Source: an archaeon (GTDB lineage Archaea; Iainarchaeota; Iainarchaeia; Iainarchaeales; JAAZKV01). Taken from it: 64,000 nucleotides of DNA. The position numbers and the translations under genes were made by a program. The notes under the pieces are model-generated. The model saw only the letters and a program-made list of their open reading frames with translations, was not told the origin of the DNA and ran no database searches. This document shows, piece by piece, positions 18,281-56,247 of this stretch. Positions within the stretch are counted from its first letter, which is position 1, and the number at the start of each line of letters is the position of its first letter. The stretch covers positions 725,554 to 789,553 of the forward strand of contig JBAZYC010000001.1 of NCBI GenBank assembly GCA_041659525.1, in the 5' to 3' direction.

Positions 18281-19591
18281 TCACTCTTCTAAATAAGTAT
18301 CAGTTCTACTAAATTCGCTTATCTCTCCGCGCAAGTTCTTTGTAAGCATTTCGCGAGCCTCTTTTGGATTAAAGTTTCCAAGTAACCAAGAAAGTTTCAT
18401 TAATGCAGTTTCAGGTAACATATCTTCGCAGTGAATTGCTCCTGTGGAAGCAACTTTTCGTAAATTAGTGTAAACATTTGGGTGTACTCTTCCATTTAAG
18501 CATTGAGAGGTAACTCCAACAACACAACCTGATTCAACTAATTCTCCTAGAGCCTTTACAAAAGAATCTTTTTCTCCAATAGGAGTGTGCCCGAGTCCAG
18601 TTCCTTCAATTATTAGTCCTTTGTATTTTTCTTTTCTATAAAAAGCAAGTTCTTTTTCAGAAACAAGCGGATGCATTTTTAGTAAACCAACTTTTTCTTC
18701 AAATTTATTTAATAATTTGAATTCGCCTTTAGATTTTTCTAGTTCTGTTTTGTTTTTTATCCACTTAATTTCTTTTGTAAAATAATTAATTAGTGCAATT
18801 GGGGTGTCATTTATTGGTTTGAATGCATCTCTTCTTGAGGTATGCATTTTTCTTGTTTTTGTTCCTGGGAGGATTGCACAATTATCATCATTAGTAGATT
18901 GGTGCATGCACACCGCTACTCCTTTGTAATTTGTTTTTGTAATAAAAGTTGCTGCACTAATTAAGTTCATTGCAGCATCACTACTTCCTCTATCTGAACT
19001 CCTCTGTGCTCCAACAATTAAAACCGGTATTGGGCAATTTTCTAGTTCAAATGAAAGAGCAGCTGCACTATATCCAAGCATATCCGTTCCGTGTCCAATA
19101 ATTATTCCCTTAACTCCTTTTTTGATTTGTTCTTTTACTGCAGTAGATATTTTTTGAAAATCAGTTACTTTCATATCTTCTGACATCATGTTTGAAACAA
19201 AAACTGATTCAATGTTAGCAATAGTAGTAAGTTCTGGAAACATTGTTACTAAATCATTAATGTCAAAACTCGCGTAAACTCCGCCTGTTGAGTAATTTAC
19301 TCTTGAAGCTATAGTTCCTCCTGTGTGAAGAATTGCGATTGTTGAAAGAGCAGGATTTTTCTTTATTTCAATTGTTTTTGCTTTTCCAACTGATTTACTC
19401 TCTCCTAAGGACTTAATGCTTTTTACTTTAGTTAATTCAAAACCAGCATTATATCCAGTACTTAGTTTTAGCATTAGCGTATCATCATTGCTTGGAATAA
19501 TTGTTCCGCTGACTTTGTTTCCCTCAAAGTCAAACTCAATCATTAACCCTTCTTTTAGAGAGTTCTTTTTGTAAAATTCAATTAGTTTCAT
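18281..19591 (-). CDS. gatD: Glu-tRNA(Gln) amidotransferase subunit D (asparaginase-like)
   Basis: 436 aa. Asparaginase motif ILHTGGTIAS and a 'GatD-type N-terminal domain'. Confidence 0.85.
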   Translation of the reverse strand: MKLIEFYKKNSLKEGLMIEFDFEGNKVSGTIIPSNDDTLMLKLSTGYNAGFELTKVKSIKSLGESKSVGKAKTIEIKKNPALSTIAILHTGGTIASRVNYSTGGVYASFDINDLVTMFPELTTIANIESVFVSNMMSEDMKVTDFQKISTAVKEQIKKGVKGIIIGHGTDMLGYSAAALSFELENCPIPVLIVGAQRSSDRGSSDAAMNLISAATFITKTNYKGVAVCMHQSTNDDNCAILPGTKTRKMHTSRRDAFKPINDTPIALINYFTKEIKWIKNKTELEKSKGEFKLLNKFEEKVGLLKMHPLVSEKELAFYRKEKYKGLIIEGTGLGHTPIGEKDSFVKALGELVESGCVVGVTSQCLNGRVHPNVYTNLRKVASTGAIHCEDMLPETALMKLSWLLGNFNPKEAREMLTKNLRGEISEFSRTDTYLEE

Positions 19592-19677
19592 TCACATAGA
19601 TAAGAGCGGTTTAATTTTTAATTGCTTTCTTAAGGGGTTTTTTCATTAATTATTCAATAGTCAACTTTTTTGAAGAA

Positions 19678-20640
19678 TTAGCAACTTCCTTCAAAAGTTG
19701 TTTTTGTACAATAAGCGCTTTCACTATTTATTGGGGTGAAGGTTGTTCCAATTTGTTTTTTGTTCCAAGCACTAGCACAATCAAAAGAATTTAAGCAATT
19801 TGCACAATAATGAATTTCTTGGTAAGTGCTATTATTTGGGTTAAATATGCTTTCTCCTACTCCTCCAGTTTTGCAAGCTTTAGTAGTATCAAGAGTGAAT
19901 ATTATTGAGTTTTCATCAAACCCTGCGTTTTGTCCTTCAAAAGTAAATATTGCTTTGTATTCTCCTGAATTACTTGGGGCAATACTCCAAAGGAAAGGGT
20001 AACTCTCCCCAGGCATTATTGTCATTGTTTCTTTTGTTTCGGAAACATAATCTGTTTCGACCCAATTAGTTGGGGATTTTTTTTCAAGTTTCAAAGAGTT
20101 TTTTCCGAAAGCAAGTTCGTTTGAACCAATATTTTTTACAAGTACTTTTATTTCTGCAGTTCCGTTTGTGTTATCAACTAATTCTATTTTATCGATTTTT
20201 GCTTGTGCAGGCAAACTTCCCAAATAAAATTTACAAGTAGCTAGTTCTCCTTGTTTGATACATCTTAAACTTGTTTGGATTTTTGTTGTATCTTTAACTT
20301 TAAAGAAATCATAATCCCATTCAATTGATTTGTTACATTTATAATTTTTGTCTTGATCCTCTTTTCTTATACAGCACTCTTTTGGATCCAAGCATTCAAA
20401 TGCAACTAATACAGTTTTGTAATCAAAATTGTTTTTGTTTACAATAAATTCTTCACCATAAAGCGGGAAACCTAAGTTCATTGTTTTTCCTAACATTGTT
20501 TGTAATTTAGCTATTTCAATGGATTTTTTCATATTATCTACGCTTTGTTTATTTTCTAGAAATTGAGGGGCAAACGTCAAAAAAACCATTACTAATGCAA
20601 GAGCAACAATTGCATAAATTATTATTTCAAATGTATTCAT
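19678..20640 (-). CDS. Cys-rich extracytoplasmic protein with N-terminal hydrophobic anchor/signal
   Basis: 320 aa. N-terminal TM MNTFEIIIYAIVALALVMVFLTF, followed by many Cys (…CLDPKECCIRK…CANCLNSFDCASAWNK…). Confidence 0.4.
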   Translation of the reverse strand: MNTFEIIIYAIVALALVMVFLTFAPQFLENKQSVDNMKKSIEIAKLQTMLGKTMNLGFPLYGEEFIVNKNNFDYKTVLVAFECLDPKECCIRKEDQDKNYKCNKSIEWDYDFFKVKDTTKIQTSLRCIKQGELATCKFYLGSLPAQAKIDKIELVDNTNGTAEIKVLVKNIGSNELAFGKNSLKLEKKSPTNWVETDYVSETKETMTIMPGESYPFLWSIAPSNSGEYKAIFTFEGQNAGFDENSIIFTLDTTKACKTGGVGESIFNPNNSTYQEIHYCANCLNSFDCASAWNKKQIGTTFTPINSESAYCTKTTFEGSC

Positions 20641-24604: not shown

Positions 24605-25333
24605 GTGCCTGTTACTCTAAGAAGACATTTAGCTACTAAAAAAAATGCTGCTGGGAAAAGAATAGTTCCTTTTTCAGGATTACGCGAAGGAGTTAATGCT
24701 GGTGAAGCACTAAAAAGGCATTTTGCTTTTATGAAAGTAAATAAAATCAAAGGATATTCTACTGAAGTTGAAAGAGGGGTTCTTGGAGCAAAAACTGCTC
24801 AAAGAAGATTTGGGGTAAAAAAACCTTTAGTTAAATTAAGAAAAGAACTTGGGTTAGCTAATATTTTTATTGATGAAAAAAAAGCAGTTGAAATTTTGAC
24901 TAATAAATATGGTGGGGACGAAGTTAAATCTAGAAATGCTTGGCTTAAAGGGGATACTCTTGAAGGAACATTAAAACCTTGGGATAAAATTTCTGAAGAT
25001 ATTGTTAGAAGAAGATTTGGTTTAGCACTTGCTGCAGAAGCAGGTAAAAGTGGAGCGGGAAGAAAAGGAGTTGCGTTACGAAGTGTATTACAAGATAATG
25101 TTACTCATAGTTGGATAGTCGAATCAGTGGTTCAAAGATTAACTAAAGGAATGAAGAACGTTCCTAAAATGGTTGGTCTTCCAAAAGAAACTACTGGAAT
25201 AAAAATGCAATTTGTAAAAATCCCTGATGGAAGATTTAGGGTATATATGGAATATGAAGAATTTCGTGGGGACGTTACAAGAAATTTTGCAGAATGCATG
25301 CTTCCTTCGGTTAGAAAATATTTAGAAGCATAA
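24605..25333 (+). CDS. Hypothetical basic protein (GTG start)
   Basis: 242 aa, Lys/Arg-rich, no recognised family. It sits immediately upstream of the multi-swivel cluster. Confidence 0.35.
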   Translation: MPVTLRRHLATKKNAAGKRIVPFSGLREGVNAGEALKRHFAFMKVNKIKGYSTEVERGVLGAKTAQRRFGVKKPLVKLRKELGLANIFIDEKKAVEILTNKYGGDEVKSRNAWLKGDTLEGTLKPWDKISEDIVRRRFGLALAAEAGKSGAGRKGVALRSVLQDNVTHSWIVESVVQRLTKGMKNVPKMVGLPKETTGIKMQFVKIPDGRFRVYMEYEEFRGDVTRNFAECMLPSVRKYLEA

Positions 25334-25409: not shown

Positions 25410-28400
25410 TTGGAATTGACTAAATTTTTTAGTAATCTTTCAAAAGAAAGCGTGGGCATTGCTGGAGGAAAAGGAGCTTCTCTAGGGGAAATGACTCGCG
25501 CTGGTATTCCAGTTCCTAATGGTTTTGTAGTTCTCTCTGATTCTTTTGAAAAGTTTTTAGAGGAAACAGATTTAAATGTTGAAATTGATGCAATTTTAGA
25601 TTCAGTGAATCACAACGAGATGCAATCAATTGAGAATGCTTCTGAAGAAATTAAAGCTCTTATTCTTAATGCGAAAATGCCAATTGATATTGAAAAAGAA
25701 ATAAAAAAGGATTTCAAAACTTTGAATGCAAAATTTGTTGCGGTTCGTTCTAGTGCAACTAGTGAAGATTTTTCTAGTGCTGCTTGGGCTGGACAACTTG
25801 ATAGTTTTCTTAATACTAAAGAAAAGGATTTACTTGAAAAAGTAAAACATTGTTGGGCTTCTCTATTTACTCCTAGAGCTATTTTTTACAGATTTGAAAA
25901 AGGACTTCACACTACAAAAATTAGTGTGGCTGTTGTAGTTCAAAAAATGGTTAATTCAGAGATAAGCGGAATAGCTTTTTCTGTTCACCCCGTAACCCAG
26001 GATAGGAATCAATTAATTATTGAAGCAGGATTTGGTTTAGGAGAAGCAATTGTTTCAGGTAGTATTACTCCTGATTCTTATGTGGTTGAAAAGAATCCAA
26101 GAAGAATAATTGACAAGAATATTAGTGATCAAGAAAGAGGGTTGTTTAAAGTTGAAACTGGCGGAAACGAATGGAAGAGTACTAAAGAAAATGGGGTAAA
26201 GCAAAAGCTTTCAGATAAGCAAATAATGGAGCTTAGTGAAATAATTTTGAGAATAGAAAAACATTATGGTTTTCCTTGCGATATAGAATGGGCATTTGAA
26301 GGGGGAAAATTCTTTATTGTCCAATCAAGACCAATTACCACTCTTTTAGATAAAAGTAATGATAACGAAATGCCTAGCGTAGTTAAAACAAAAAAAGTTT
26401 CAAGTAAATCAAAAGAGGATGAGATTCAAAAGTTTGTTTCATTGATTAATTCGCAACCACTTGATGTTAAGCAAGCCAAATGTAGTGTTTTGGCCGCTGA
26501 CATAGTTTTTGGGGTTTATTCTAATAAAGTAGTTTTCAATGAAAATTATTCACCCTTGATTCATCCGTATAAGTGGCCTAATTTGCAGCAAGTAATTCTT
26601 GAAGGAAGAATGAAAGGGGTTGAAAGAGTTATTTGGACAAATGCGATTAAGAACAAAAAAAAGTTTACAAGAGTTTTGAGTGAAGGTTCTGCTTTGCATA
26701 AAAAAATAGTGCGTATGAGTATTCCTGATTCACAACTATCAAAACTTTCTGAGCCACAGCTCTTAAAATATTTTGAGGAATTAGTTGAATTAACTAAAAA
26801 ATGGTGGGTGTATGCTGCGATAGGGGAAGATAAGGGGCTTGTGGTTGAAGAAAAATTAATTCCTTTGTTAGTTAAAAATCATAATTTAACTCCTCATGAA
26901 GCACAAGAATATTCTTCTGACATGGCTTCTCCCAAGGGGCAATCAGTGTTCTCAAAAGAAAGAACTGCTTTTTTAGAACTCTGTTTGATTCTTTCAAAAA
27001 ATAAAGCTCTTTTTAATTTAATAAAAAAAGGAGAGTCTTTACCTAAAAATAAGTTTTCTTTATTTTCAAAAAAAATAAATGATTATTCTAAAAAGTATTT
27101 TTACTCAAGAACAGATTTTTATGGAGGTCAAAAAATAAATGATTTTACTTTACCAAAATTAGTATTTGACGAATTAAATAAAACTACTTTATCAAAATTA
27201 AAACACGAGTTTATTGTTTTTAAAACTTCTGAAAAAGAATTAGAAAAAAGGCAAAAAGCGTGGTCAAAACGAGTTTCTTCAATTACAAAAGAAGAAAAAG
27301 ATTATTTGTGGTATTCTGAGGTAATGCACACTTGGATTGATGAAAGAAAAGTTTGTATGGTGTCCCAGTTTTATTATTTGTTTTCAGTTCTTGAAGAACT
27401 TTCTTTGAGAAGAAATATTAGTTATGACAAGCTTGCCTTACTAACTATAAGTGATTTAAAAAAATTTATCAAGGACGGAACAATTGATTTTGATTTAATC
27501 AAAAAAAGAGGAGAAGGAGCAGTTTTTGTTTATGAAAAAAACAAGCCTGTTGTAGAATTTTTTGAAAAAGACGCGGATTTGTTTAATGAAGCAATAAATA
27601 GGCACAGTTCTTCAGAAACAGTTGCTGGAACAATTGCAAGTAAGGGTAATGGCGAAAAAATTATTGTTGGTCGCGTAAAAATAGTTCATGATCCGTTTAA
27701 GGATTCTTTTGCTGAAGGGGAAGTATTAGTAACTACTATGACTCGTCCAGAGTTCGTACCTATAATGAAGAAAGCCATTGCGATTGTTACTGATGAAGGT
27801 GGACTTACCTCTCATGCTGCAATAGTATCAAGAGAGCTTGGGGTGCCTTGTATAATTGGAACAAAGAATGCTACAAAACTACTCAAGGACGGAGATTTGA
27901 TTGAAGTTGATGCAAATACAGGGGTTGTGAGACTAATAGATTCTACTAAAATTGAATCTTTAGTAAAAAATAATTTGGTTTTTGAAAAATCTATTACTCG
28001 TGATTGGGGAATGATTTATGCTGAAATTTGGCACAAAGTTTTCACCAGTGAATTCAAAAAGCAACTTGGTTGGGGTTATACAGAAGTTGTGTTTGAGGGT
28101 AAAAATAATTCTGTGACTATTTATCGTGCACCAAGTGAACATTTGGATGGAATGCGAGATTTTATTCTTGCTAATCTTGACAAGGACAAAGATTGGTTAA
28201 GGAATCATGCAAAAATAGTAAAAAAAATGGTGAACAAAGCAATTTCTTGGATGAATTATTTAGAAACCAAAAAGTTGTCAAATTATTCTTCAAAAGAACT
28301 AGCAATTATTTTTGATGATTTTGTTAAAATGAATATAGAACTAGGCCCGCGTTTTATTATGATGCTTTGGTTTCCAATTCAAATGGAGAAACATAATAAA

Positions 28401-31400
28401 GCAAATCAATACAAAGATGATGTTAAAGTAGCTATAGAAACTAGGGAAGAAATTGAAAAAATTGGTCCACTAGTTGATACTCTTGCAAGAAAAATTGCTG
28501 ATGAAGTTTCGCTTAGGGCTAAACTAGATAATTCTTTTTCTCGTTTTATTAGTATTGATCAAATAGATAACTATTTGAAGAAAAAAATAGTTCCTGATAG
28601 CAAGAACTTATCTTCAAGAAGCAAATATTTTATTGTTACTAATGAAGGAATATTACCAGAAGAATTTGAAAATTATTTAGCAAGAAAGAATTATTCATTA
28701 AAGAAAATTGATTTATCCAATATAACTACTATTAAGGGAAATCCTGCTTATCCTGGAGTGGTTAGGGGTATTGTAAAAATAATTAAGAATAAAGATTCTT
28801 TTGGAAAATTAAATGAAGGGGAAATTTTAGTTACTGGAATGACTACTCCTGATTTTTTACCAGTGATGAAGAAAACAGCTGGTTTCATCACTGATGAGGG
28901 CGGAATCACTTGTCATGCTGCAATAGTTGCTCGTGAACTAAAAAAGCCCTGCATAATAGGAACAAAAATAGCTACCGAAGTCCTAAAAGACGGTGATTTG
29001 GTAGAAGTTGATGCAAACAATGGAATTGTAAAAATCCTTGAGAGTTCAAAAGTAAAAGTTGAAAAGAGCAAAAGTGATTTGTCCCCAGGGCTTTGGAAAG
29101 ACTCTTTTCGTTGGAAATATGAGGCTTGGCCATTTTTCACATCTGTGTATTTGAAAGCTTCTTTGCCTGGGGAATCAAGTTATTATGTTCCGTGGCCAGA
29201 TTTTGTTAACAAGTTTGAAAATGGACATTTGGAAGCTTATTTGCCAAAAAAAGAAATTCTTTCTAAAGGTAAAGTTGAAATTGATGAATTAATTAGAGGG
29301 GATGATTATTTTGCAAAAGAATTTAGGTTACTTTTGAATAGAATACATAAAGCGATAAGTAATTGTGAAAAAGTAAGAAAGGACAAAAATTATTCTGAAC
29401 TAAATTTATGGTGGCCAGAGGTACAAAGCGTTCTTTCAGATGTTGCAGCACTATTATTTGGTTTTGATTATACTTTAAATGATTGGATGAAGGAGATGCA
29501 AACAAAAGATCCTGAATTGTTTAGTTCTATTTCATCTAGTATAAAAGAAATCAAACCATCTTTTATTAATGAAGCAATAAATGAAGTAGTTTCTTTAGTA
29601 AACAAATACCCTAATGACTTTGATAAAGTTCATTCTAAATTTATTGAAAACTTTTCATGGTTTCAGAATTCTTATGCTGGGGAGTTTGATATTACAAAAG
29701 AATGGCTCAGAAAATTTTATGAAGAGAATAAATCAAAAGTGAATCAAAATCATTCTAGCCCTAAAGCTTCTTCTCCAAAAAAATATAAATTACTATGTGA
29801 ACTTGCAAGTGAGGCAGTTTCGTTTAGAGATGACAAGAAAAAATTGCTTTTAATTGCAGTTGAGTTAATGAATGATTGGCTAAGAGAAAATTGCGAGAAA
29901 AATTCATTGAATTTTGATGAAATGAAATGGTTAAGCGTTGATGAAGTAGTTGAGGCAATTAGTGGAAACAAAAAAATTACTGCTTATGCAAAAAAATGCG
30001 CTTCTCAAAACAAAAGAATTGGTTTGATGGTTGAAAGGGGATATGAAGATGTTTCTGAAGATTTTTTTAACGAAATTGGCGAAGTTTTTTTGGGTTCGGG
30101 CAAGATAATTGAATTAAGAGGGATGACTGGGAATAAAGGAAAAATAGTTGGTAAAGCCAGAGTAATTCTTGATGCAAAAAAAGAGGAATATAAGCTTCAA
30201 ATGGGGGATATTTTAGTTACCTCCATGACTCGTCCAGAGTTTTTACCATTAATGAATAAAGCTGCGGCTTTTGTTACTGATGAAGGTGGAATAACTTGTC
30301 ACGCTGCGATTGTTGCAAGAGAAATGAACAAGCCTTGTATAATTAGTACCAAAACTGCCACTCAAATAATTAAAGATGGAGATTTGATTGAAGTTGATGC
30401 GAATACTGGGATTGTTAAAATCCTTGAGAGTTCAATTAAAAAAAAAAGTTTAACTGAGCCAATTGAATTAAGCAAGATTTATTCTCGAGAAAAAAGTCTT
30501 TTGTATTATAGAATGTGGAGTGATTCTGACAGAAAGGGGTATGAAAAATATTTGAATCACAAAGTAAAAAATAATTTGTTTATAATTTCTAAAAGTGGGG
30601 AAAAAGGGAGTGTTTGGTATAGTTTAGAAGAACTCAAAGAAATTGAAAAAAAGTTTTTAGAAATATATGAAGCTAATCCAAAAATTATTCAAGAAATCCT
30701 AAAAGATATAGCGGCCTCTTGGAAAGTTCTTCAAAAATACCTTTCTTCAGAAATATCTTCTCTAAATGATTTTAAAAAATATTATTCAAATTTAGTTGAT
30801 TTTTGGGCTGGTTGGAACACAATAATTAATGTTCCTGATTATTCTTGGGTTTTGGAAAAAGATAAGCAAAGGGTTTTGGATTCTAGAAAAGAAACAGAAA
30901 ATTACACCGAACAGCTTTCTTCTCTATTAACAAATTTTGTTGAAAAAGAGTTCCCTTCTCTAAAGGAACACTCTTTTTTTATTGATGTTGAAGAATTCCT
31001 TAACCCAAATCCGAATATAATGGAAAAGCTTCTAGAAAGAAAAAATGGTTGTTTTTTACTTAATGGCAAGCTTTATCCAAAAAATGAACTTGAAAATGTT
31101 TTGAATAAAAATAATTTGAAACTAGGGGTTGAATCAAATCCATCTTTGCAAGAAAGTTCAAAAGAAAAGTATTTTTTTGCAAGGGAAAGACCTTGGCTCT
31201 TTAATCCGGTTTATTGGAATCCGGTTGTTCAAACAAGTAAAGAAATAGAAGCAATTTATGGTACTTTTCTTTCAGTAGAATGGAATATTTACAAAGAAGG
31301 GCGAATGAGAGTAATAATTCCTCAAGAGGAGTGGGATAGAATTGGAGTATTTATTGCAAACAAAATGTTTTCTGATAAGCAATATTTTGATAATTTAGTA

Positions 31401-32576
31401 TCTAAAACTAAAAGTGCTAAAAAAGAAATTGATTCTTTTTTAATAAAATCTAAAAAACAGGATTATTCAAAATGTTCTTTAAAAGAGTTGAATTCTTTTG
31501 CTAAAGAGATTTATAGTTTGTTTATGAAGTATGATTCTGCAAGTGTATTTTCTTGGTTTATTGCAGGGGATTTGTTTAAAGAAAAAGTGCATAACAAATT
31601 AGGGTTAAGTTGGGAAGATTTTGAGATTGTTTCACTCCCTGAAGAAAAAACTTTTGTTTCAAAACTTGATGAAGATTTGCTAAAAGCATCTCTTTTGAAA
31701 AATCCCACTCTTCAAGCAGCAAATCTTTCAAATAAATACTATTGGGTGCCTTTTGGATATGATGGACCAAGTATTTGGGGCAAAGAGTACTTTTTGGAAA
31801 AAATAAATTCTATTAAAGATAATACAAAATTAGTAAAAAAAGAGTTAGAGAAAATAAAAGAGAATGATTTGAATAAGAAAAAAAAGATAAAAATTATATT
31901 AAACAAAATTTCAAAAGATAAACAAGCAATTGAGCTTTTGAAAAGAATGCATTATTTGACGCTTTGGACTGATGAGCGAAAAATGCTTGAGTTTCAGTTA
32001 TTTTATTATTATAATTTGGTTCTTGAGAGAATTGGTAAATTAACAGGGTTTTCAGTTATTCAACTCAAACATCTTACTGTTGAAGAACTTTTGTTGATTT
32101 CTCAAGAAAAAAATAGTTTAATTCAAAAAGCAAATGATAGAATCAATAATCCATTTCTTACTATTATAAAAAAAGGAAAAGTAGATTTTTGTACAAATGA
32201 AGAATATAATGAAATGTATGAGAAGATTGAGAATCAGCTTTCATCAACTGAACTAAAAGGGACAGTGGCTTGTAAAGGGCCAAAGGAAAAATATGTGGCA
32301 AAAGTAAAAGTGGCTTCTTCTCCAAAAGATGGTGAAAAGTTACTTGAAGGAGAATTTTTAGTAGCCTCAATGACTACTCCTGAATATATTGTTTCAATGA
32401 AAAAAGCTATTGGGTTTATTACTGATGAGGGTGGAGTAACTTGTCATGCTGCAATTGTTGCAAGAGAAATGAACAAACCTTGTGTTATTGGCACAAAAGT
32501 TGCTACTAAAGTTCTCAAAGATGGCGATTTGGTAGAGGTAGATGCAAATACAGGGATAATTAAGAAGATTTCTTAA
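25410..32576 (+). CDS. Giant (2388 aa) PEP-utilizing-enzyme family protein: N-terminal PPDK/PEP-synthase-type ATP-grasp nucleotide-binding domain plus four swivel phosphohistidine domains
   Basis: N-terminus GIAGGKGASLGEMTRAGIPVPNGFVV…VAVRSSATSEDF…CDIEWAFEGGKFFIVQSRPIT is the PEPS/PPDK/rifampin-phosphotransferase ATP-binding domain. There are four copies of …TDEGG[LIV]T[SC]HAAIV[SA]RE[LM][GNK][VK]PC[IV]IGTK…DGDL[IV]EVDAN[TN]G[IV]…, with His codons at 27812, 28914, 30300 and 32445. Unknown helical regions of about 300-450 aa precede each copy. It is a single uninterrupted ORF with an apparent TTG start. Confidence 0.8.
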   Translation: MELTKFFSNLSKESVGIAGGKGASLGEMTRAGIPVPNGFVVLSDSFEKFLEETDLNVEIDAILDSVNHNEMQSIENASEEIKALILNAKMPIDIEKEIKKDFKTLNAKFVAVRSSATSEDFSSAAWAGQLDSFLNTKEKDLLEKVKHCWASLFTPRAIFYRFEKGLHTTKISVAVVVQKMVNSEISGIAFSVHPVTQDRNQLIIEAGFGLGEAIVSGSITPDSYVVEKNPRRIIDKNISDQERGLFKVETGGNEWKSTKENGVKQKLSDKQIMELSEIILRIEKHYGFPCDIEWAFEGGKFFIVQSRPITTLLDKSNDNEMPSVVKTKKVSSKSKEDEIQKFVSLINSQPLDVKQAKCSVLAADIVFGVYSNKVVFNENYSPLIHPYKWPNLQQVILEGRMKGVERVIWTNAIKNKKKFTRVLSEGSALHKKIVRMSIPDSQLSKLSEPQLLKYFEELVELTKKWWVYAAIGEDKGLVVEEKLIPLLVKNHNLTPHEAQEYSSDMASPKGQSVFSKERTAFLELCLILSKNKALFNLIKKGESLPKNKFSLFSKKINDYSKKYFYSRTDFYGGQKINDFTLPKLVFDELNKTTLSKLKHEFIVFKTSEKELEKRQKAWSKRVSSITKEEKDYLWYSEVMHTWIDERKVCMVSQFYYLFSVLEELSLRRNISYDKLALLTISDLKKFIKDGTIDFDLIKKRGEGAVFVYEKNKPVVEFFEKDADLFNEAINRHSSSETVAGTIASKGNGEKIIVGRVKIVHDPFKDSFAEGEVLVTTMTRPEFVPIMKKAIAIVTDEGGLTSHAAIVSRELGVPCIIGTKNATKLLKDGDLIEVDANTGVVRLIDSTKIESLVKNNLVFEKSITRDWGMIYAEIWHKVFTSEFKKQLGWGYTEVVFEGKNNSVTIYRAPSEHLDGMRDFILANLDKDKDWLRNHAKIVKKMVNKAISWMNYLETKKLSNYSSKELAIIFDDFVKMNIELGPRFIMMLWFPIQMEKHNKANQYKDDVKVAIETREEIEKIGPLVDTLARKIADEVSLRAKLDNSFSRFISIDQIDNYLKKKIVPDSKNLSSRSKYFIVTNEGILPEEFENYLARKNYSLKKIDLSNITTIKGNPAYPGVVRGIVKIIKNKDSFGKLNEGEILVTGMTTPDFLPVMKKTAGFITDEGGITCHAAIVARELKKPCIIGTKIATEVLKDGDLVEVDANNGIVKILESSKVKVEKSKSDLSPGLWKDSFRWKYEAWPFFTSVYLKASLPGESSYYVPWPDFVNKFENGHLEAYLPKKEILSKGKVEIDELIRGDDYFAKEFRLLLNRIHKAISNCEKVRKDKNYSELNLWWPEVQSVLSDVAALLFGFDYTLNDWMKEMQTKDPELFSSISSSIKEIKPSFINEAINEVVSLVNKYPNDFDKVHSKFIENFSWFQNSYAGEFDITKEWLRKFYEENKSKVNQNHSSPKASSPKKYKLLCELASEAVSFRDDKKKLLLIAVELMNDWLRENCEKNSLNFDEMKWLSVDEVVEAISGNKKITAYAKKCASQNKRIGLMVERGYEDVSEDFFNEIGEVFLGSGKIIELRGMTGNKGKIVGKARVILDAKKEEYKLQMGDILVTSMTRPEFLPLMNKAAAFVTDEGGITCHAAIVAREMNKPCIISTKTATQIIKDGDLIEVDANTGIVKILESSIKKKSLTEPIELSKIYSREKSLLYYRMWSDSDRKGYEKYLNHKVKNNLFIISKSGEKGSVWYSLEELKEIEKKFLEIYEANPKIIQEILKDIAASWKVLQKYLSSEISSLNDFKKYYSNLVDFWAGWNTIINVPDYSWVLEKDKQRVLDSRKETENYTEQLSSLLTNFVEKEFPSLKEHSFFIDVEEFLNPNPNIMEKLLERKNGCFLLNGKLYPKNELENVLNKNNLKLGVESNPSLQESSKEKYFFARERPWLFNPVYWNPVVQTSKEIEAIYGTFLSVEWNIYKEGRMRVIIPQEEWDRIGVFIANKMFSDKQYFDNLVSKTKSAKKEIDSFLIKSKKQDYSKCSLKELNSFAKEIYSLFMKYDSASVFSWFIAGDLFKEKVHNKLGLSWEDFEIVSLPEEKTFVSKLDEDLLKASLLKNPTLQAANLSNKYYWVPFGYDGPSIWGKEYFLEKINSIKDNTKLVKKELEKIKENDLNKKKKIKIILNKISKDKQAIELLKRMHYLTLWTDERKMLEFQLFYYYNLVLERIGKLTGFSVIQLKHLTVEELLLISQEKNSLIQKANDRINNPFLTIIKKGKVDFCTNEEYNEMYEKIENQLSSTELKGTVACKGPKEKYVAKVKVASSPKDGEKLLEGEFLVASMTTPEYIVSMKKAIGFITDEGGVTCHAAIVAREMNKPCVIGTKVATKVLKDGDLVEVDANTGIIKKIS

Positions 32577-32639
32577 TTTCTCTAAAAATCAATCCTTAAA
32601 ACATCTTTTGTTGTTTTTATTGTGTGTTGAAGTGTTGTT

Positions 32640-34067
32640 ATGATTGTTCAAAATCTTCCTTTGAATCCTAAAGCTGAATTATTTAGGTGGGGTCCGATTC
32701 AGGTACATCCGTTTTATCTTGATCATATTGAAATGATGCATTCTGGAGAGTTTGAAAAAGTTTATCCGAATTATTCGTGGCCAGAATCGCTTTTGTTGTT
32801 TAAAGGAAACGATTTGCTTTGGTTAAATGAGTTTTCCGAGCTTTGGGCAGTTGGAAAAAGAACTTTTATTGATTTAATTTTTGAAAAAAAACAATTTTTA
32901 AAAGTAAGAAAGAGCTATGAATCTGCAAGAAAAAAAGTTGTTGTTTTTGAAAAAAAATTGGATAATACCAAGATTGAACTACTATCGGATAAAGAATTGG
33001 GTTTGCTTTCAGCAAATTTTAGTAAGGTTTGGAATTCTTTTTGGGTTCATGGTTTGATTCCTGAGCTTGCGAATTGCGGGGCGGACAAGTATCTTGAGGA
33101 AAAGCTAAAAGAAGTAGTTTCTGATTCTACTGAAAGATTGGCTGTAATGGAAGCACTTACTGCTCCTGAAGAGCTTTCTTTTTATCAACAAGAAGAAATT
33201 GAGCTTTTAGAGACAAAAAACCTAAAAAAACACAGGGATAAGTATTTTTGGATAAAAAATGGGTATGGGCATGTAGTTGACCTTGATGTTGAATTTTTTG
33301 TTGAAAGAAAAAAGGGTTTATCAAAAGGCCTAAAGAAACAAATAACTGCTAGATTGAATCAGGCAAAAGAAAAAAAGAAAGTTGTTCAAAAAAAGTATCA
33401 CTTATCAAAAGAAATAATGGAAATAGCTAGAAAAATTGTTTATTGTATTGTTTGGCAGGATGAAAGAAAAAAGAATATTGAACGTTTTTTACATTATAAA
33501 TATTTGTTGCTTGCTGAATGTTCAAGAAGAAAAGAAATTTCTAAAACTGATTTACTTACGCTTTTCTCTTTTGAACTTGAACAATTGCTTTTAGGAAAAT
33601 CTTTTGATGAAGAACTTAAAAAAAGAAAAAAAAGCTTTGCGTTGATTCTTGCTTCAAAAAGATTAGAGTTTATTTATCCTCCTCTTGCTGACGAGTATTG
33701 GGGTGTTTATTCTGAAAAAGTTGATGGACAAATAAAAGAAATAAAAGGGATAGTTGCAAGTACTGGAGAAAATCCTTTAATCAGTGGGCGAGTTAGAATT
33801 ATTCTTGATCCTCATAAAGTATCTGATTTTAAGGAAGGTTCAATTCTTGTTGCTCCAATGACTAGTCCAGATTATATTTATGTAATGAGAAAATCAATTG
33901 CAATTATAACTGATACAGGGGGATTGACTTCTCATGCTGCAATAGTTTCAAGAGAGCTTGGAGTACCTTGCATTGTTGGAACTAAAATTGCTACCCAAGT
34001 TTTCAAAGATGGAGACTTGGTAGAAGTTGATGCGAATAAAGGGATTATTAGAAAACTCAAGAATTGA
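32640..34067 (+). CDS. PEP-utilizing-enzyme swivel-domain protein (unknown N-terminal module + 1 phosphohistidine domain)
   Basis: 475 aa. C-terminal …TDTGGLTSHAAIVSRELGVPCIVGTK…DGDLVEVDANKGII (His codon 33933). The N-terminal module is similar to inter-swivel regions of the upstream giant gene. Confidence 0.7.
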   Translation: MIVQNLPLNPKAELFRWGPIQVHPFYLDHIEMMHSGEFEKVYPNYSWPESLLLFKGNDLLWLNEFSELWAVGKRTFIDLIFEKKQFLKVRKSYESARKKVVVFEKKLDNTKIELLSDKELGLLSANFSKVWNSFWVHGLIPELANCGADKYLEEKLKEVVSDSTERLAVMEALTAPEELSFYQQEEIELLETKNLKKHRDKYFWIKNGYGHVVDLDVEFFVERKKGLSKGLKKQITARLNQAKEKKKVVQKKYHLSKEIMEIARKIVYCIVWQDERKKNIERFLHYKYLLLAECSRRKEISKTDLLTLFSFELEQLLLGKSFDEELKKRKKSFALILASKRLEFIYPPLADEYWGVYSEKVDGQIKEIKGIVASTGENPLISGRVRIILDPHKVSDFKEGSILVAPMTSPDYIYVMRKSIAIITDTGGLTSHAAIVSRELGVPCIVGTKIATQVFKDGDLVEVDANKGIIRKLKN

Positions 34068-36991
34068 TTTTTATGAATTTTAAAGAATTGTTTGACTGGG
34101 TTTCTGCTTCTAAAAACGAATATGAATTAAGCAAATTTGATGGAGATATTTTCTTTTACACTGACATGGTTCTTTTTGATACTTTAAAGAAAAAGTACCA
34201 AATAGTTTTGCTTTACCCAAAAGATGATCCTTACAGGTATTGGTATTTTTCAAATCTCTCTGCTCTTGAAAGTAATTCAAAAAAGCTTTATAAAAAATAT
34301 TTGAAAAATCCAGCTAAACTTAAAAAAGAGTTTAATGCAAAAAAGAAAAAAGTTCTTTTAGCGAACAAGGTTCTTTTTAGTTCTAAACAAGTTGATTTGA
34401 AAAAGTACAAAAAGTTAGTTGTTTCAGTAAAAGGTTTTGCTAGTATTGTAATGAATACTCTTGAGGGGTTAGAGAAAATTCTTGGGAAAGAATTAGTTAA
34501 AGAATTTCCTGATGAAAAAATAAGAACTGTGTTGTCCACTTCTTTGTATACTTCCTACGCTCAATCTGAAGAGGAAGCCCTAATAAAAATAATTGAACAA
34601 TTGCCTAAAAATGAATTTGAGTTGTTAAAAACCGGGGAAAAGGATTTTAAAAAATATCCTGTTTTTAGTAAAAAGCTTAAAGTACACGAATCTAATTGGG
34701 GTTGGGCTTACTCGAATTATGCTTCTCATGAATTTGGTTTAACTAAAGAGATATTCCAAAAATCTTTATCAATAGTAAATAATATCGAATTTGACAAATT
34801 AAGATTTAGTGGGTTAGAAGTTAAACGAAGTGAAAAAAGAACCTTAATTAAAAAATTGAGTTCTAAAAAAAGAAAAATAGTTGAATTACTTGATTTGCTT
34901 TTCCAAATGCGTGATGAAAGAAAAGAAACTTGGATAAAAATTACCCCTCCTACAAAGCTTTTCTTAGGAAAATTTGCTGTAGAGCATGGTTTGACTTATA
35001 ATGATTTTAGATGGCTTACTTTTGAAGAACAAATAAGTTTCGAAAAAAATAAAGAAAAATATCTGTCTTTAATTAATGAAAGAAAAAACGGGTTGGTTGC
35101 TTTTTATGGATTTGGAAAAGAAAACAAGTTAATTTTCACAGGAAATGATTCTGAAAAGTTTGGGGAAATATTTTTTAAAAGAGAAAGTGTTTTGAAGTTA
35201 AAAGGAACTCCTGTTTCAGTTGGTAAAGCTACTGGAGAAGTTTGCATAATAATGAATAAATCTGATTTCCAAAAGTTCAAAGAGGGAAATATTTTAGTTT
35301 CTTCTCACACCACTCCTGATTATTTGCCTTTAATGAAGAAAGCTAGTGCGATTCTTGCTGAACGAGGGGGAATAACCTCTCACGCAGCAATTGTCTCAAG
35401 AGAACTACACATTCCTTGCATTGTTGGAATAAAAGGATTAGTTGGAAATTTCAAAGACGGCGATTTAGTAGAAGTGGATGCGAATAAAGGAATTGTAAAA
35501 ATAATAAAAAATAATGAAGAAATCAAACGCAATTCTAGAGAATTTGATTTTGAGGGTATTTCAAAAATGAAGTGGCGTTATATTCACAAAAGATTTAGGA
35601 CTCCTTTTTACATGTTCTTGCTTTTTGATGGTATTTCAAATCATTACAACAAGGAGTTTGATTTTCCTTATGAAATTGCAGGATTAGTGCTTGATTATGA
35701 ATTAATGCTGTCGCAGGAAGATTGGGACAAACAAAAAGTAATGGCTCTTGAAAAGATTAAACAAAATCCTTCTTTTTGTTTGGATTTTACAAAAAAAGCT
35801 TATTTGCAAAATGAAGAAAATCTAAAGTTAATTAAATCCATGGCCAAAATGGATTTAGCTTCTGTTTCAAATGCCTCTCTTGCCGATTTGCTTGTTAATT
35901 ATTCTAAAAAATCAATGAATATTTCTTCATTTATGGTTTTACCATTGCTTTTTGAACAAGACTTAGAAAAAAACATTCACGAAGCGGTTGAAAAAAAATA
36001 TGGGGCAAAAGCAACTGGAGTTATGCATACTTTAACGATTCCAATAAAGAAAACAACCACTCAGTTAGAAGAAAATAATATTCTAAAGCTTGCCTTATTA
36101 AAGAAAAAAAATAAATTAACTTTAACTCAAGTAGAAGAGCACCAAGCAAAATATGGGTGGCTAAAAAATACCTCTTTTGATGGTAGTTTTTATTCTATCC
36201 GAGAAATCCAAGATAAGATTGATATTGCGTCTAAAAGTAATCTTTTAGAGAAACTTAAACATAAAAAATTAGAAGAAGAAAAGCAAATTAAGTTGTTTAA
36301 AAAATACCGAAATTCATTCAAAGGATCAAAAATAGCAAATTCTATTGATACATTAAATGAACTTATCTTTTTTAGAAGTTGGAGAACAGAAATATTCTCT
36401 CAAAATGCTCAACTTTTAAAAGAATTTTTTGCACAAATCTCAAAAAGAATTGATTTGGATAATTCAACAAATTTGTTTTACTTAACTCATTTAGAAATAG
36501 CTAAACTTTTAACTGATGGGAAAAGTGCTCCCTCTAATTTGATAGAGGAAAGAAAAAAAGGTTATTTTATGTTTGCATCAAAGAAAAGTACTATTGTTGG
36601 AGAAGGAGAGTTGCTTGCGAATTTAAAGAAATGTATGAATATTCACTCTAATGAAGAGGTTAAAGATGAAATAAAAGGAAAATCAGCTTTTCCTGGATTG
36701 GTTACGGGAATTGTTTGTATCATAAATTCAAAAGCAGATTTTGCTAAAGTAAATTCAAAGAATCAAATAATTGTGGCATTCTCAACCACTCCCGATCAAG
36801 TTCCTATAATAAAAAAAGCTGCAGCAATTGTTACTGACGAAGGGGGGATTTTAAGTCACGCATCAGTAATATCAAGAGAATTAAAAATTCCTTGCATAAT
36901 TGGAACAAAGAACGCAACAAAAATCCTAAAAGACGGCGATTTGATAGAGGTTGATGCTAACAAAGGAATTATAAAGAAGAAAAGTAATTAG
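34064..36991 (+). CDS. PEP-utilizing-enzyme swivel-domain protein (2 modules)
   Basis: 975 aa. Swivel domains at about aa 375-480 (ERGGITSHAAIVSRELHIPCIVGIK, His 35381) and at the C-terminus (TDEGGILSHASVISRELKIPCIIGTK, His 36857; variant motif). The start overlaps the previous stop (ATGA). Confidence 0.7.
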   Translation: MIFMNFKELFDWVSASKNEYELSKFDGDIFFYTDMVLFDTLKKKYQIVLLYPKDDPYRYWYFSNLSALESNSKKLYKKYLKNPAKLKKEFNAKKKKVLLANKVLFSSKQVDLKKYKKLVVSVKGFASIVMNTLEGLEKILGKELVKEFPDEKIRTVLSTSLYTSYAQSEEEALIKIIEQLPKNEFELLKTGEKDFKKYPVFSKKLKVHESNWGWAYSNYASHEFGLTKEIFQKSLSIVNNIEFDKLRFSGLEVKRSEKRTLIKKLSSKKRKIVELLDLLFQMRDERKETWIKITPPTKLFLGKFAVEHGLTYNDFRWLTFEEQISFEKNKEKYLSLINERKNGLVAFYGFGKENKLIFTGNDSEKFGEIFFKRESVLKLKGTPVSVGKATGEVCIIMNKSDFQKFKEGNILVSSHTTPDYLPLMKKASAILAERGGITSHAAIVSRELHIPCIVGIKGLVGNFKDGDLVEVDANKGIVKIIKNNEEIKRNSREFDFEGISKMKWRYIHKRFRTPFYMFLLFDGISNHYNKEFDFPYEIAGLVLDYELMLSQEDWDKQKVMALEKIKQNPSFCLDFTKKAYLQNEENLKLIKSMAKMDLASVSNASLADLLVNYSKKSMNISSFMVLPLLFEQDLEKNIHEAVEKKYGAKATGVMHTLTIPIKKTTTQLEENNILKLALLKKKNKLTLTQVEEHQAKYGWLKNTSFDGSFYSIREIQDKIDIASKSNLLEKLKHKKLEEEKQIKLFKKYRNSFKGSKIANSIDTLNELIFFRSWRTEIFSQNAQLLKEFFAQISKRIDLDNSTNLFYLTHLEIAKLLTDGKSAPSNLIEERKKGYFMFASKKSTIVGEGELLANLKKCMNIHSNEEVKDEIKGKSAFPGLVTGIVCIINSKADFAKVNSKNQIIVAFSTTPDQVPIIKKAAAIVTDEGGILSHASVISRELKIPCIIGTKNATKILKDGDLIEVDANKGIIKKKSN

Positions 36992-36998
36992 CATTTAG

Positions 36999-38069
36999 AT
37001 GGTTCTTAAGGAATCTTGCCCTAACTTATTTAGTACTGGTGTTGATTGGCAGCTTTATTTATCGCGTCCGTTTTCTATTTTCGAATCTTCTTTGTGGCAT
37101 TCTTGGTTTTCTTCTGAAGAATTACTTTCTGTTTTAGGGGTTGTTTCTCCTAAAGGATTGTACATTGAATATCCTAAAGAAATTAGTAACAATTACCGTG
37201 ATTCAACTGAGTTAAAAAATTTTTCTGATTCTTTTGAATTAATTCCAAAAACAAATCGAGAAAAATCATTGGCTCTTCTAAAAAAAGGACTTGAGTTAAA
37301 TAATAAAACAATTGAATTAATAAAAAGTAATTCGCTTTCGCTTGAAGAGGCAGTGAATCATTTAACTCTTCTTGCAGTTCATTCTACTATAGCTCCTTTT
37401 TTTATTAGAAATGGATTAGAAAAGCATAATTTAATTGATGAAGAAATTGCCACTCTTGCAGATGAACTTAGAAAAAAATCATTTTATCCTGATTATTTAG
37501 AGAAAGTAATTTTTCCTATTGCTCAAAAAAGAATTGAGTCATTAGGGTTTGAAAAAGATTGTTTGCCTTTCATTACTTACAAGGATTTGATTAAAGGAAA
37601 TACAAGTACTGTTTTATTGAATAAGGAAAAATCAAAGCAAGGATTGCTTTTTGTTTATGATTGTAATACTAGCGATGAAAATGTTACTTTTGTTGAAGAT
37701 ACTAGTCCAATAATAAAATCACTTAACAAAGATTTTGTTGAAAGTAAAATTGGGGGCTGTACTGCCTATAGTGGAAAAGTTATTGGTAAAGTTCATTTAG
37801 TTTTTACAAATAACCCTAAAGGAATTATTTTTGATCAGGGGGATATTTTAGTTGCTATTCACACAAGTCCTAGATTGAGTCCTCTTTTTGATAAAGCTGG
37901 GGCGATTGTTACTGATGAAGGTGGAATTGCTTGTCACGCAGCAATTATTAGTAGAGAAATGCATATTCCTTGTATTGTTGGAACAAAGAATGCAACAAAA
38001 ATTTTGCATGATGGAGATTTAGTAGAAGTTGACGCAAGTAAAGGGACTGTAAAAATCTTAACTAAATAA
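36999..38069 (+). CDS. PEP-utilizing-enzyme swivel-domain protein (unknown N-terminal module + 1 phosphohistidine domain)
   Basis: 356 aa. C-terminal TDEGGIACHAAIISREMHIPCIVGTK…DGDLVEVDASKGTV (His 37935). Confidence 0.7.
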   Translation: MVLKESCPNLFSTGVDWQLYLSRPFSIFESSLWHSWFSSEELLSVLGVVSPKGLYIEYPKEISNNYRDSTELKNFSDSFELIPKTNREKSLALLKKGLELNNKTIELIKSNSLSLEEAVNHLTLLAVHSTIAPFFIRNGLEKHNLIDEEIATLADELRKKSFYPDYLEKVIFPIAQKRIESLGFEKDCLPFITYKDLIKGNTSTVLLNKEKSKQGLLFVYDCNTSDENVTFVEDTSPIIKSLNKDFVESKIGGCTAYSGKVIGKVHLVFTNNPKGIIFDQGDILVAIHTSPRLSPLFDKAGAIVTDEGGIACHAAIISREMHIPCIVGTKNATKILHDGDLVEVDASKGTVKILTK

Positions 38070-38125: not shown

Positions 38126-38764
38126 TTATTTAAGTCCAGCTTCTATTGAATCAACATCGTCTGCGGAGATTATTTCAAATCCTTCGCCATCGTATTCTAG
38201 TTCAAATAGTGCGCAGTCTTTGATTCCACTTACTTCAAATCCAATTATTTCTCTAAAAATAGCAGTTATTGGTCCGCCGTGAGTCAAAAATGCAATTGAA
38301 TCAGTTTCTGCTTCACTTTCTTCTTCAATTATTTCATTAAATGCAGCTAACACTCTTTCACAAAATTCAAAGTACCCTTCAGAATCTTTTACATGGTGGT
38401 AGGGAGCGTTTTCTTCAAGATCCATTACTTCATCTTCATATTCTTCTTTTGCTTCCTCTTTTTTCATTCCGCTTAGTATTCCATAATTATTTCTTTCGCG
38501 TAAATCAGGAACTGAAATTAAAGTGGGTTGTATTTCTTTTCCAATAATTGCAGCAGTTTCAACCGCTCTTTTTTTTGGGCTAACAAATAGTTTAGTTATT
38601 TCGCTTTCGCTTAATCTTTTAGCAAGTTCTGCTGCTTGTTTTTTTCCTTTTGGAGTAAGAGAATCATCATATTCTCCGCCGTAGCGTTTCTCAATATCTG
38701 AAGTACTTTCGCCGTGTCTTAAAAGAAAAACTCGCATATTCTCACAAAGAAAAAATAATTCCAA
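38126..38764 (-). CDS. Histidine phosphatase (phosphoglycerate mutase family) protein
   Basis: The LLRHGEST motif near the N-terminus (the real start is probably the internal MRVFLL), and a later …THGGPI… region. Confidence 0.6.
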   Translation of the reverse strand: MELFFLCENMRVFLLRHGESTSDIEKRYGGEYDDSLTPKGKKQAAELAKRLSESEITKLFVSPKKRAVETAAIIGKEIQPTLISVPDLRERNNYGILSGMKKEEAKEEYEDEVMDLEENAPYHHVKDSEGYFEFCERVLAAFNEIIEEESEAETDSIAFLTHGGPITAIFREIIGFEVSGIKDCALFELEYDGEGFEIISADDVDSIEAGLK

Positions 38765-43676: not shown

Positions 43677-43734
43677 TTGTCTGTGATGAAGCTAATGTTC
43701 TGATTTGTGATGAACGATGGGCGAACTGAGACAA
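43677..43734 (+). ncRNA. C/D-box sRNA (2'-O-methylation guide)
   Basis: The elements are: 5' stem TTGTC, C box GUGAUGA (43683-89), a 10-nt guide, D' CUGA (43700-03), a 3-nt linker, C' GUGAUGA (43707-13), a 12-nt guide, D CUGA (43726-29), and 3' stem GACAA complementary to the 5' stem. This is canonical archaeal C/D sRNA spacing. Confidence 0.65.
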
Positions 43735-56145: not shown

Positions 56146-56247
56146 CTGTTTTCAACTCAAAATTATTTAATTTTTTTTATTTAACTAAATTAACCATGAT
56201 TTTAATCAATTTTTTTGTTATTTTTATTTTTTTAATTCCCATTTTTT

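Follow-up and report, generated by a model that had tools for sequence, protein, structure and literature searches.

A four-gene archaeal cluster encodes one ATP-grasp domain and eight phosphohistidine swivel domains: a probable small-molecule dikinase with a shared loader

Introduction

To our knowledge, the characterised dikinases that work through a swivelling phosphohistidine domain, namely phosphoenolpyruvate (PEP) synthase (PEPS), pyruvate phosphate dikinase (PPDK), alpha-glucan water dikinase (GWD), rifampin phosphotransferase (RPH), PigC, PpsAB and HpeHI, have one ATP site, one carrier and one acceptor. Here we describe a cluster of four adjacent genes, g1 to g4, in which a single ATP-grasp domain is encoded together with eight swivel domains. 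The cluster lies on the archaeal contig JBAZYC010000001.1 (Iainarchaeales), within a stretch of 64,000 nucleotides that was analysed in full and is called the window below; coordinates are those of the window. A first-pass annotation of this DNA had read the cluster as an undescribed multi-module system resembling PEPS and RPH. Our analysis of its domain identities, folds and counts, of its motif conservation and of the comparative pattern among its relatives supports that reading, which was essentially right.

Among the closest described systems, HpeHI is the biochemical precedent for loading of a swivel in trans: the HpeH-HpeI complex is only transient, and HpeH alone moves phosphate between substrates (PMC12167813). 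Full-text literature searches returned no description of multi-swivel proteins, in keeping with the word "undescribed" in the first-pass annotation. The nearest items were a metagenome paper on DPANN archaea, which lists automatically annotated "phenylphosphate synthase" genes without the downstream pathway (PMC8091004), and PPDK_N domains inside giant Omnitrophota proteins. The layout of one ATP-grasp domain with many swivels is common in genomes of the candidate phyla radiation (CPR) and of DPANN, and is apparently undescribed.

Results

Domain organisation of the cluster

The four genes lie on one strand with intergenic gaps of 63, -4 and 7 bp (g1-g2, g2-g3 and g3-g4), and the open reading frame (ORF) list shows no frameshift or stop codon across their 12.6 kb. 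In Pfam searches of the four proteins, the ATP-grasp nucleotide-binding domain (PPDK_N, PF01326) had a single match, at residues 17-321 of g1 (338 bits). The PEP-utilizer mobile domain (PF00391), that is the swivel, matched four times in g1, once in g2, twice in g3 and once in g4, with E-values from 1e-25 to 4e-105 and whole-protein scores of 89-344 bits against a gathering cut-off of 23.1. The PEP/pyruvate-binding TIM barrel (PF02896) had no match at E<=0.1 in any of the four. The motif GG-x-x-[SC]-H...DGDL[VI]EVDA is present eight times, with the catalytic histidine in all eight swivels. A six-frame scan of the 64-kb window, using sensitive hidden Markov models (HMMs) built from the domains of this family, found no further swivel or ATP-grasp domain (next-best E>0.5). 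The first-pass annotation had proposed eight motif copies split 4+1+2+1 over four same-strand genes and a single ATP-grasp domain at the N-terminus of g1, and both counts stand. Seven of its eight histidine codon positions were exact; the first, given as 27812, is at 27813.

The genes and domains are as follows, with S for swivel and M for the helical module that precedes it. Swivels were placed by Pfam and motif, together with the window HMM scan (S1-S4, S6 and S7) or a structure model (S5 and S8).

25410-32576, + strand: g1, 2388 amino acids, TTG start; ATP-grasp domain and four units of helical module plus swivel (ORF, Pfam)
25410-26384, + strand: ATP-grasp (PPDK_N) nucleotide-binding domain, g1 residues 1-325; PF01326, only copy in the window
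26400-27638, + strand: M1, long-type RPH-like module, g1 residues 331-743; motif WIDERK; module cluster 5; matches M3, M4, M5 and M7 (hhalign)
27639-27944, + strand: S1, GGLTSH, His codon 27813
27945-28736, + strand: M2, short-type module, g1 residues 846-1109; hhalign 99.9% to M8 and 98.8% to the N-terminal part of M4
28737-29045, + strand: S2, GGITCH, His codon 28914
29046-30119, + strand: M3, long-type module, g1 residues 1213-1570; FRDDKK (R-D-x-K-K, closest to R-E-x-x-K of RPH)
30120-30431, + strand: S3, GGITCH, His codon 30300
30432-32267, + strand: M4, composite module, g1 residues 1675-2286; short-type followed by long-type with WTDERK (hhalign)
32268-32573, + strand: S4, GGVTCH, His codon 32445
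32640-34067, + strand: g2, 475 amino acids; module plus swivel (ORF, Pfam)
32640-33755, + strand: M5, long-type module of g2, residues 1-372; motif WQDERKK
33756-34064, + strand: S5, swivel of g2, GGLTSH, His codon 33933
34064-36991, + strand: g3, 975 amino acids; TTG start in a 4-bp overlap with the g2 stop, alternative ATG at 34073 (ORF)
34064-35203, + strand: M6, long-type module, g3 residues 1-380; MRDERK; hhalign 97% to M1 and M4
35204-35512, + strand: S6, GGITSH, His codon 35381
35513-36676, + strand: M7, long-type module, g3 residues 484-871; diverged FRSWRT (family consensus fRt.RT)
36677-36988, + strand: S7, GGILSH, His codon 36857
36999-38069, + strand: g4, 356 amino acids; module plus swivel (ORF, Pfam)
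36999-37754, + strand: M8, short-type module of g4, residues 1-252; conserved R23 and LR158xxSYYP
37755-38066, + strand: S8, swivel of g4, GGIACH, His codon 37935

No carbohydrate-binding or condensation domain was found by Pfam in g1-g4. Hydrophobicity does not exceed 1.6 in any 19-residue window of the four proteins, which should therefore be cytosolic, and a membrane or secretion role was rejected on the same ground.

Conservation of the swivels and of the ATP-grasp domain

The eight swivels have the beta-barrel fold of the PEP-utilizer mobile domain and share 22 invariant positions. Their nearest known relatives are the swivels of archaeal PEPS, and six of the eight copies carry the PEPS-type threonine at position -2. 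Pairwise protein identity among them is 46-65% (mean 53%), while the same codon is used at identical residues at a frequency of 0.53, against 0.49 expected from codon usage. Synonymous sites are thus at chance level although the protein is conserved, so the swivels are old copies under purifying selection, and recent tandem duplication or gene conversion was rejected. The helical modules of the window are only about 25% identical to one another.

The ATP-grasp domain of g1 aligns to residues 8-324 of RPH (5fbs, Listeria monocytogenes) and to archaeal PEPS (8a8e). The equivalents of RPH Lys22, Arg117 and Glu297 are kept, as K21, R113 and the Glu of CDIEW. Its sequence is about 85% identical among related archaea and 66-75% identical to that of CPR bacteria (loci L016-L087; P0005, P0007 and P0029). 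Identity at this level is unusually high between archaea and bacteria and suggests interdomain transfer, very strong constraint, or both.

The helical modules are of the RPH type

The stretches between swivels are, judged by profile alignments and structure models, eight sequence types of the RPH-type helical substrate-binding domain, which is also found in HpeH, PpsA and CreH subunits. The first-pass annotation had described helical modules of 300-450 amino acids as candidate substrate-binding domains; the match to RPH bears out their nature, but the window modules measure 252-612 amino acids and fall into two classes. Module lengths are likewise bimodal across all fetched relatives (n=760), at about 235-260 and 365-410 amino acids. 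The long class in hhalign comparisons comprises M1, M3, M5, M7 and the C-terminal 375 residues of M4, all homologous to one another, with M6 more weakly so. The short class comprises M2, M8 and the first ~235 residues of M4, and its N-terminal ~120 residues are common with the long class. Residues 11-232 of M4 match M2 and M8, and residues 236-612 match M1, M3, M5 and M7; a 605-residue composite of the M4 type also occurs in a 2021-residue protein of locus L001. None of the window modules resembles an ATP-grasp domain (hhalign probability <0.5%), leaving no cryptic copy between the swivels.

The M1-type profile aligns to residues 595-866 of the RPH protein RPH-Lm. The family motif W-x-D-x-R-K falls on RPH Y665-R666-E667-Y668-P669-K670, with its D on Glu667 and its K on Lys670, and most long modules retain this putative phosphate-transfer motif. 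In the g2 and M1 families these D, R and K residues do not vary. In RPH, the substitutions R666A and E667A are reported to abolish rifampin phosphorylation and spare the ATP half-reaction (Stogios et al., PMC4844700). Two Arg positions are conserved in short modules, one N-terminal (tRDw or RPF) and one mid-helix; the M2 family keeps the residues tRDw and A...R..te.

AlphaFold models of g2 and g4 were obtained with predicted local distance difference test (pLDDT) values of 94.6 and 94.4 and predicted template modelling (pTM) scores of 0.91 and 0.90. RPH (5hv1) superposes on the two models over 382 and 287 residues, covering module and swivel together, and is the only PDB chain that matches them beyond the swivel.

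Relatives in archaea and bacteria

The best 120 matches to g1 are proteins of 1340-3657 amino acids with one ATP-grasp domain each (two with extra fragmentary matches) and two to seven swivels; they are labelled Parcubacteria, Patescibacteria, Paceibacterota, Woesearchaeota or Nanoarchaeota. When the swivel profile was searched against 1.84 billion cluster representatives, the best 150 matches were all multi-swivel proteins. When GTDB was scanned with the ATP-grasp domain, 240 matching stretches held relatives. In the 35 complete clusters among them the ATP-grasp domain is surrounded by one swivel (16/35), by two to six (18/35) or by none (1/35), and the fetched flanks of ~10 kb gave no second ATP-grasp match.

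The nearest loci are labelled Nanoarchaeota, Woesearchaeota or "ainarchaeum". At the syntenic archaeal site the order is a SIMPL gene, a hypothetical gene of 242 codons, the cluster and prolyl-tRNA synthetase (ProRS), and the cluster holds 1, 2, 3, 6, 7, 8 (this window) or 9 swivels with one ATP-grasp domain each, so the syntenic clusters whose existence the first-pass annotation had left to be checked do occur. Fusion or fission has placed gene boundaries differently in syntenic loci that are built from like parts. Outside the archaea, a Parcubacteria locus (L004) has nine swivels and one ATP-grasp domain; a group I intron (Rfam RF00028, 86 bits) lies upstream of that cluster, at 744-1021. 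A Paceibacterota array (L091) has 15 swivels in 21 kb and no ATP-grasp domain inside the fetched stretch. It consists of thirteen consecutive single-module genes, a 996-residue two-swivel protein running off the left edge and, at the array end (18720-20411), a 563-residue protein in which an XRE-type helix-turn-helix (HTH; HTH_3/HTH_19) is fused to a module and swivel. This fusion could link transcription to phosphoryl state or ligand binding.

In Magasanikbacteria (L006 and L088) an orthologue of g2, 40-46% identical over its full length, stands between an HD-domain gene and a stand-alone ATP-grasp gene of 320-335 codons, in the operon order HD, module plus swivel, ATP-grasp. Since the g2 orthologue is paired there one-to-one with an ATP-grasp gene, a module and an ATP-grasp domain form a self-sufficient unit. 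The g2 orthologue and the HD-domain phosphohydrolase gene (L006 9394-9999; L088 5394-6020) overlap at the start of the former, with a Carb_kinase-family gene just upstream.

Clustering of the modules gave more than 100 types, and the eight window modules fall into eight different clusters. A module type is repeated in only 8 of 84 loci, and module order is not conserved. The M5 type is the largest in a sample that was enriched for it by the g2 search, and M6 is a singleton with no close relative among the fetched sequences. M3 is 64% identical to module 5 of the 3462-residue protein of L002. Between orthologues, conservation falls from the ATP-grasp domain (85%, and 66-69% against CPR bacteria) through the swivel (~70%) to the module (40-45%, with the one pair at 64%).

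Neighbouring genes and other features of the window

Directly after the cluster, on the opposite strand (38126-38764, - strand), lies a gene of the histidine phosphatase superfamily (His_Phos_1). Such a gene also follows the cluster in close relatives and, independently, the nine-swivel Parcubacteria cluster (L004 21715-22251; L008 ~14027; L092 2128-2739). The protein is generic (cobC/PspA/GpmB/SixA-like and below all NCBIfam cut-offs) and might dephosphorylate products or phosphohistidine. It was rejected as a dedicated partner, being generic and found by phmmer in only 2 of 80 GTDB loci. Directly upstream of g1 (24605-25333, + strand) is the gene for the 242-residue protein, which is basic and has no family match. 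Its position is conserved in the archaeal loci L001, L002, L010, L011, L013 and L014 and it was not detected in CPR loci; as it is syntenic only in related archaea, it is not counted as part of the system. PADLOC gave no match to a known anti-phage defence system for g1-g4 or either neighbouring gene, and viral origin or carriage was rejected as well: in IMG/VR the g2 profile matched swivels only, and the ATP-grasp domain had no relative.

The window is archaeal in gene content, with a DPANN archaeon as its likely source. It has a GC content of about 32% and encodes GatD (18281-19591), GatE (14527-16410), an ATP-dependent DNA ligase, an archaeal-type ProRS, deoxyhypusine synthase and a tRNA-intron endonuclease. 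A LAGLIDADG-domain ORF (1272-2405) overlaps the start of a GatB/GatE-family gene (2371-3777). An archaeal C/D-box small RNA, sR2, matches at 43679-43731 (+ strand) with 44 bits, just above the gathering score of 42. A 1446-residue protein with four Laminin_G_3 (concanavalin-like) domains is encoded at 45473-49813 and a T2SSE/T2SSF pilus-type gene set at 54193-58836; both are surface and attachment features typical of DPANN-like cells.

Discussion

We consider it probable that the cluster is a small-molecule dikinase of the kind represented by RPH and by HpeHI, PpsAB and CreHI, arranged as a hub with spokes: one loader and many substrate-specific modules. ATP would be bound by the single ATP-grasp domain at the N-terminus of g1, which would pyrophosphorylate the catalytic histidine of any docked swivel and then leave it monophosphorylated, four swivels being loaded in cis (g1) and four in trans (g2, g3 and g4). 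Each loaded swivel would swing back to its own adjacent helical acceptor domain, where a cluster of acidic, Arg and Lys residues would position the phosphohistidine for transfer of its phosphate to a hydroxyl of the bound small molecule. The net reaction would be ATP + X-OH + H2O -> AMP + Pi + X-O-P, with transfer of the beta-phosphate. We infer dikinase chemistry with release of AMP and Pi by analogy with PEPS, RPH, PpsAB and HpeHI, and a shared loader with one substrate per module by analogy with RPH, PpsAB and HpeHI.

Three observations point to a shared loader: the fusion and fission pattern; the lineages in which one module and one ATP-grasp domain occur independently; and the conservation gradient, as would follow if all swivels had to dock on a single loader, with the pockets diverging. 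With eight sequence types of acceptor, there are therefore probably up to eight substrates. The variable, non-redundant and horizontally mobile repertoire argues for an adaptive toolkit, in metabolite capture or detoxification, and not for a fixed pathway; for the g2 type, which is very widespread, a core metabolite may be the substrate. Candidate roles are the trapping or salvage of host metabolites, the inactivation of toxic compounds, and activation for ligation as in PigC/RedH.

Several points weigh against this reading. Another ATP-grasp protein encoded outside the 64-kb window, for example a true PEPS, could load some of the modules, and recent transfer between archaea and bacteria, instead of constraint by many partners, could account for the extreme conservation of the ATP-grasp domain. 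The N-terminal part of M4 (30432-31140, g1 residues 1675 to ~1910) is a short-type module without a swivel of its own. The Arg of the long-module motif sits at the position of RPH Pro669, three residues past Arg666, except in M3 and M7. The M7 motif has diverged, and in short modules conservation is limited to single Arg residues. Neither a conserved neighbour nor an annotated relative gave a clue to a substrate, and no riboswitch or other RNA clue was found in the window or in six related loci.

The most direct challenge is that the modules each have their own ATP-grasp or PEP-dependent partner elsewhere in the genome, so that the 1:8 ratio is only local. The window covers 64 kb of a genome of about 1 Mb, and stand-alone ATP-grasp genes do occur in the family (L006 and L088). 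We nevertheless regard this as unlikely: single polypeptides carry one ATP-grasp domain and up to seven swivels, the flanks of the 35 complete GTDB loci hold no second one, the 15 swivels of the Paceibacterota array extend over 21 kb with none inside, and the tight spacing of the operon ties g2-g4 to g1. It is likewise improbable that the modules act successively on a single scaffold, be it a glycan or cell-wall polymer as for GWD or an activation-ligation sequence as for PigC/RedH. Such a pathway would suit genes that are clustered and fused like assembly lines, and NCBIfam matches place PigC/RedH and GWD in the same superfamily. It fits poorly with a syntenic archaeal site that holds anything from one to nine modules, with shuffled order and combinatorial use of more than 100 types, with a g2 type that forms an isolated two-gene unit in Magasanikbacteria, and with the lack of carbohydrate-binding or condensation domains in g1-g4.

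Instead of modifying small molecules, the cluster might be a phospho-relay or regulatory device, in which swivels exchange phosphate or report ATP/AMP status and the helical domains are sensors or scaffolds. We judge this very unlikely. Each swivel is paired with a catalytic-looking RPH-type acceptor domain that keeps putative phosphate-transfer residues, no HPr-like or receiver partner is present, and the known relatives with an RPH-type module are all small-molecule kinases (PMC12167813, PMC4844700). A relay finds some encouragement in the XRE-type HTH that closes the 15-swivel array of L091, in the use of the same swivel fold by Enzyme I of the phosphotransferase system (PTS), which works in a relay, and in the histidine phosphatase gene that abuts the cluster here and in Parcubacteria L004, although the last is a neighbour in only the two GTDB loci noted above. 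Finally, the extra modules could be dead weight, decaying duplicates of one functional RPH-like enzyme, as the diverged motif of M7 and the loss of a swivel from the N-terminal half of M4 might hint. Conservation largely refutes this explanation and makes it extremely improbable: all eight swivels keep the catalytic His and the 22 invariant positions, saturation of synonymous sites goes with a conserved protein sequence, distant taxa hold orthologues of each module type in which residues are conserved, and the genes are intact throughout.

On the hub-and-spoke dikinase reading, one ATP site apparently serves eight carrier/acceptor pairs in this window and at least nine in a relative, which raises the mechanistic question of how one ATP-grasp domain recognises and schedules many swivels, and more than 100 uncharacterised predicted kinase specificities are on offer. 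The cluster probably moved between bacteria and archaea. It occupies 12.7 kb of a genome of about 1 Mb, recurs in Patescibacteria and DPANN and has a loader of high identity, and so probably matters to how these uncultured symbionts live. A broader and more speculative possibility, which we hold only tentatively, is that CPR and DPANN have in common an ATP-driven analogue of the PTS, in which one highly conserved loader serves fast-evolving, horizontally exchanged modules (>100 types, up to at least 15 per genome) that trap or neutralise small molecules of the host. If true, this would be part of the explanation of how cells that have few classical kinases and next to no biosynthesis supply themselves.

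Comparison with known systems

The first 845 residues of g1 have the domain order of RPH (ATP-grasp, helical substrate-binding domain, C-terminal His swivel). RPH, however, has one swivel per ATP-grasp domain where this locus has eight, its identity to the locus proteins is only 17-18%, and the short module class of the locus lacks about one third of the rifampin-binding domain. Rifampin phosphotransferase proper was rejected, as scores against the RPH equivalogs NF041857 and NF000283 (525 against a cut-off of 999 bits, and 373 against 1700) are far too low even with summed domains. As judged from profiles and models, the locus units belong to the superfamily of RPH-type small-molecule dikinases that includes RPH, PigC/RedH and HpeHI.

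The products of g2, g3 and g4 have the layout of HpeH and PpsA, with substrate-binding domain and swivel and no ATP-grasp domain. A counterpart of HpeI and PpsB, the stand-alone ATP-grasp gene, is found beside the g2 relative in Magasanikbacteria (L006 and L088) only, and not in the window. HpeHI, PpsAB and CreHI are one-to-one gene pairs that act on phenolics in free-living bacteria, whereas the ATP-grasp domain of the window is fused to four modules and faces eight swivels. At position -2 of the swivel motif, HpeH, CreH, PpsA and RPH have Met, in contrast to the Thr of most copies at the locus.

PEPS and PPDK presumably share the three-step dikinase chemistry. PEPS itself (TIGR01418/PRK06464) was rejected as the identity of the locus, because PF02896 is absent from g1-g4 and the domain order differs. 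The score of g1 against the NCBIfam model NF005057, "phosphoenolpyruvate synthase" (PRK06464), is 793 bits, above the cut-off of 598, because five stretches (the ATP-grasp domain and four swivels) are summed. This is an annotation trap: such a score, generic names and the "phenylphosphate synthase" label in DPANN (PMC8091004) can lead metabolic reconstructions astray. For g2 and g4, the database entries with identical proteins (MFA5931451.1 and MFA5931453.1) bear the name "MAG: PEP-utilizing enzyme [archaeon]".

The resemblance to the PTS, with one general phosphoryl loader and many substrate-specific components, would be functional only, apart from the swivel fold that Enzyme I has in common with the swivels of the locus. 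The PTS uses PEP as donor, HPr and a membrane permease, whereas the locus would use ATP and has a swivel for each module and neither HPr nor permease. What appears to be new at this locus is not the kind of enzyme, which is already known, but the departure from one-to-one pairing, with eight swivels to one ATP-grasp domain in the window.

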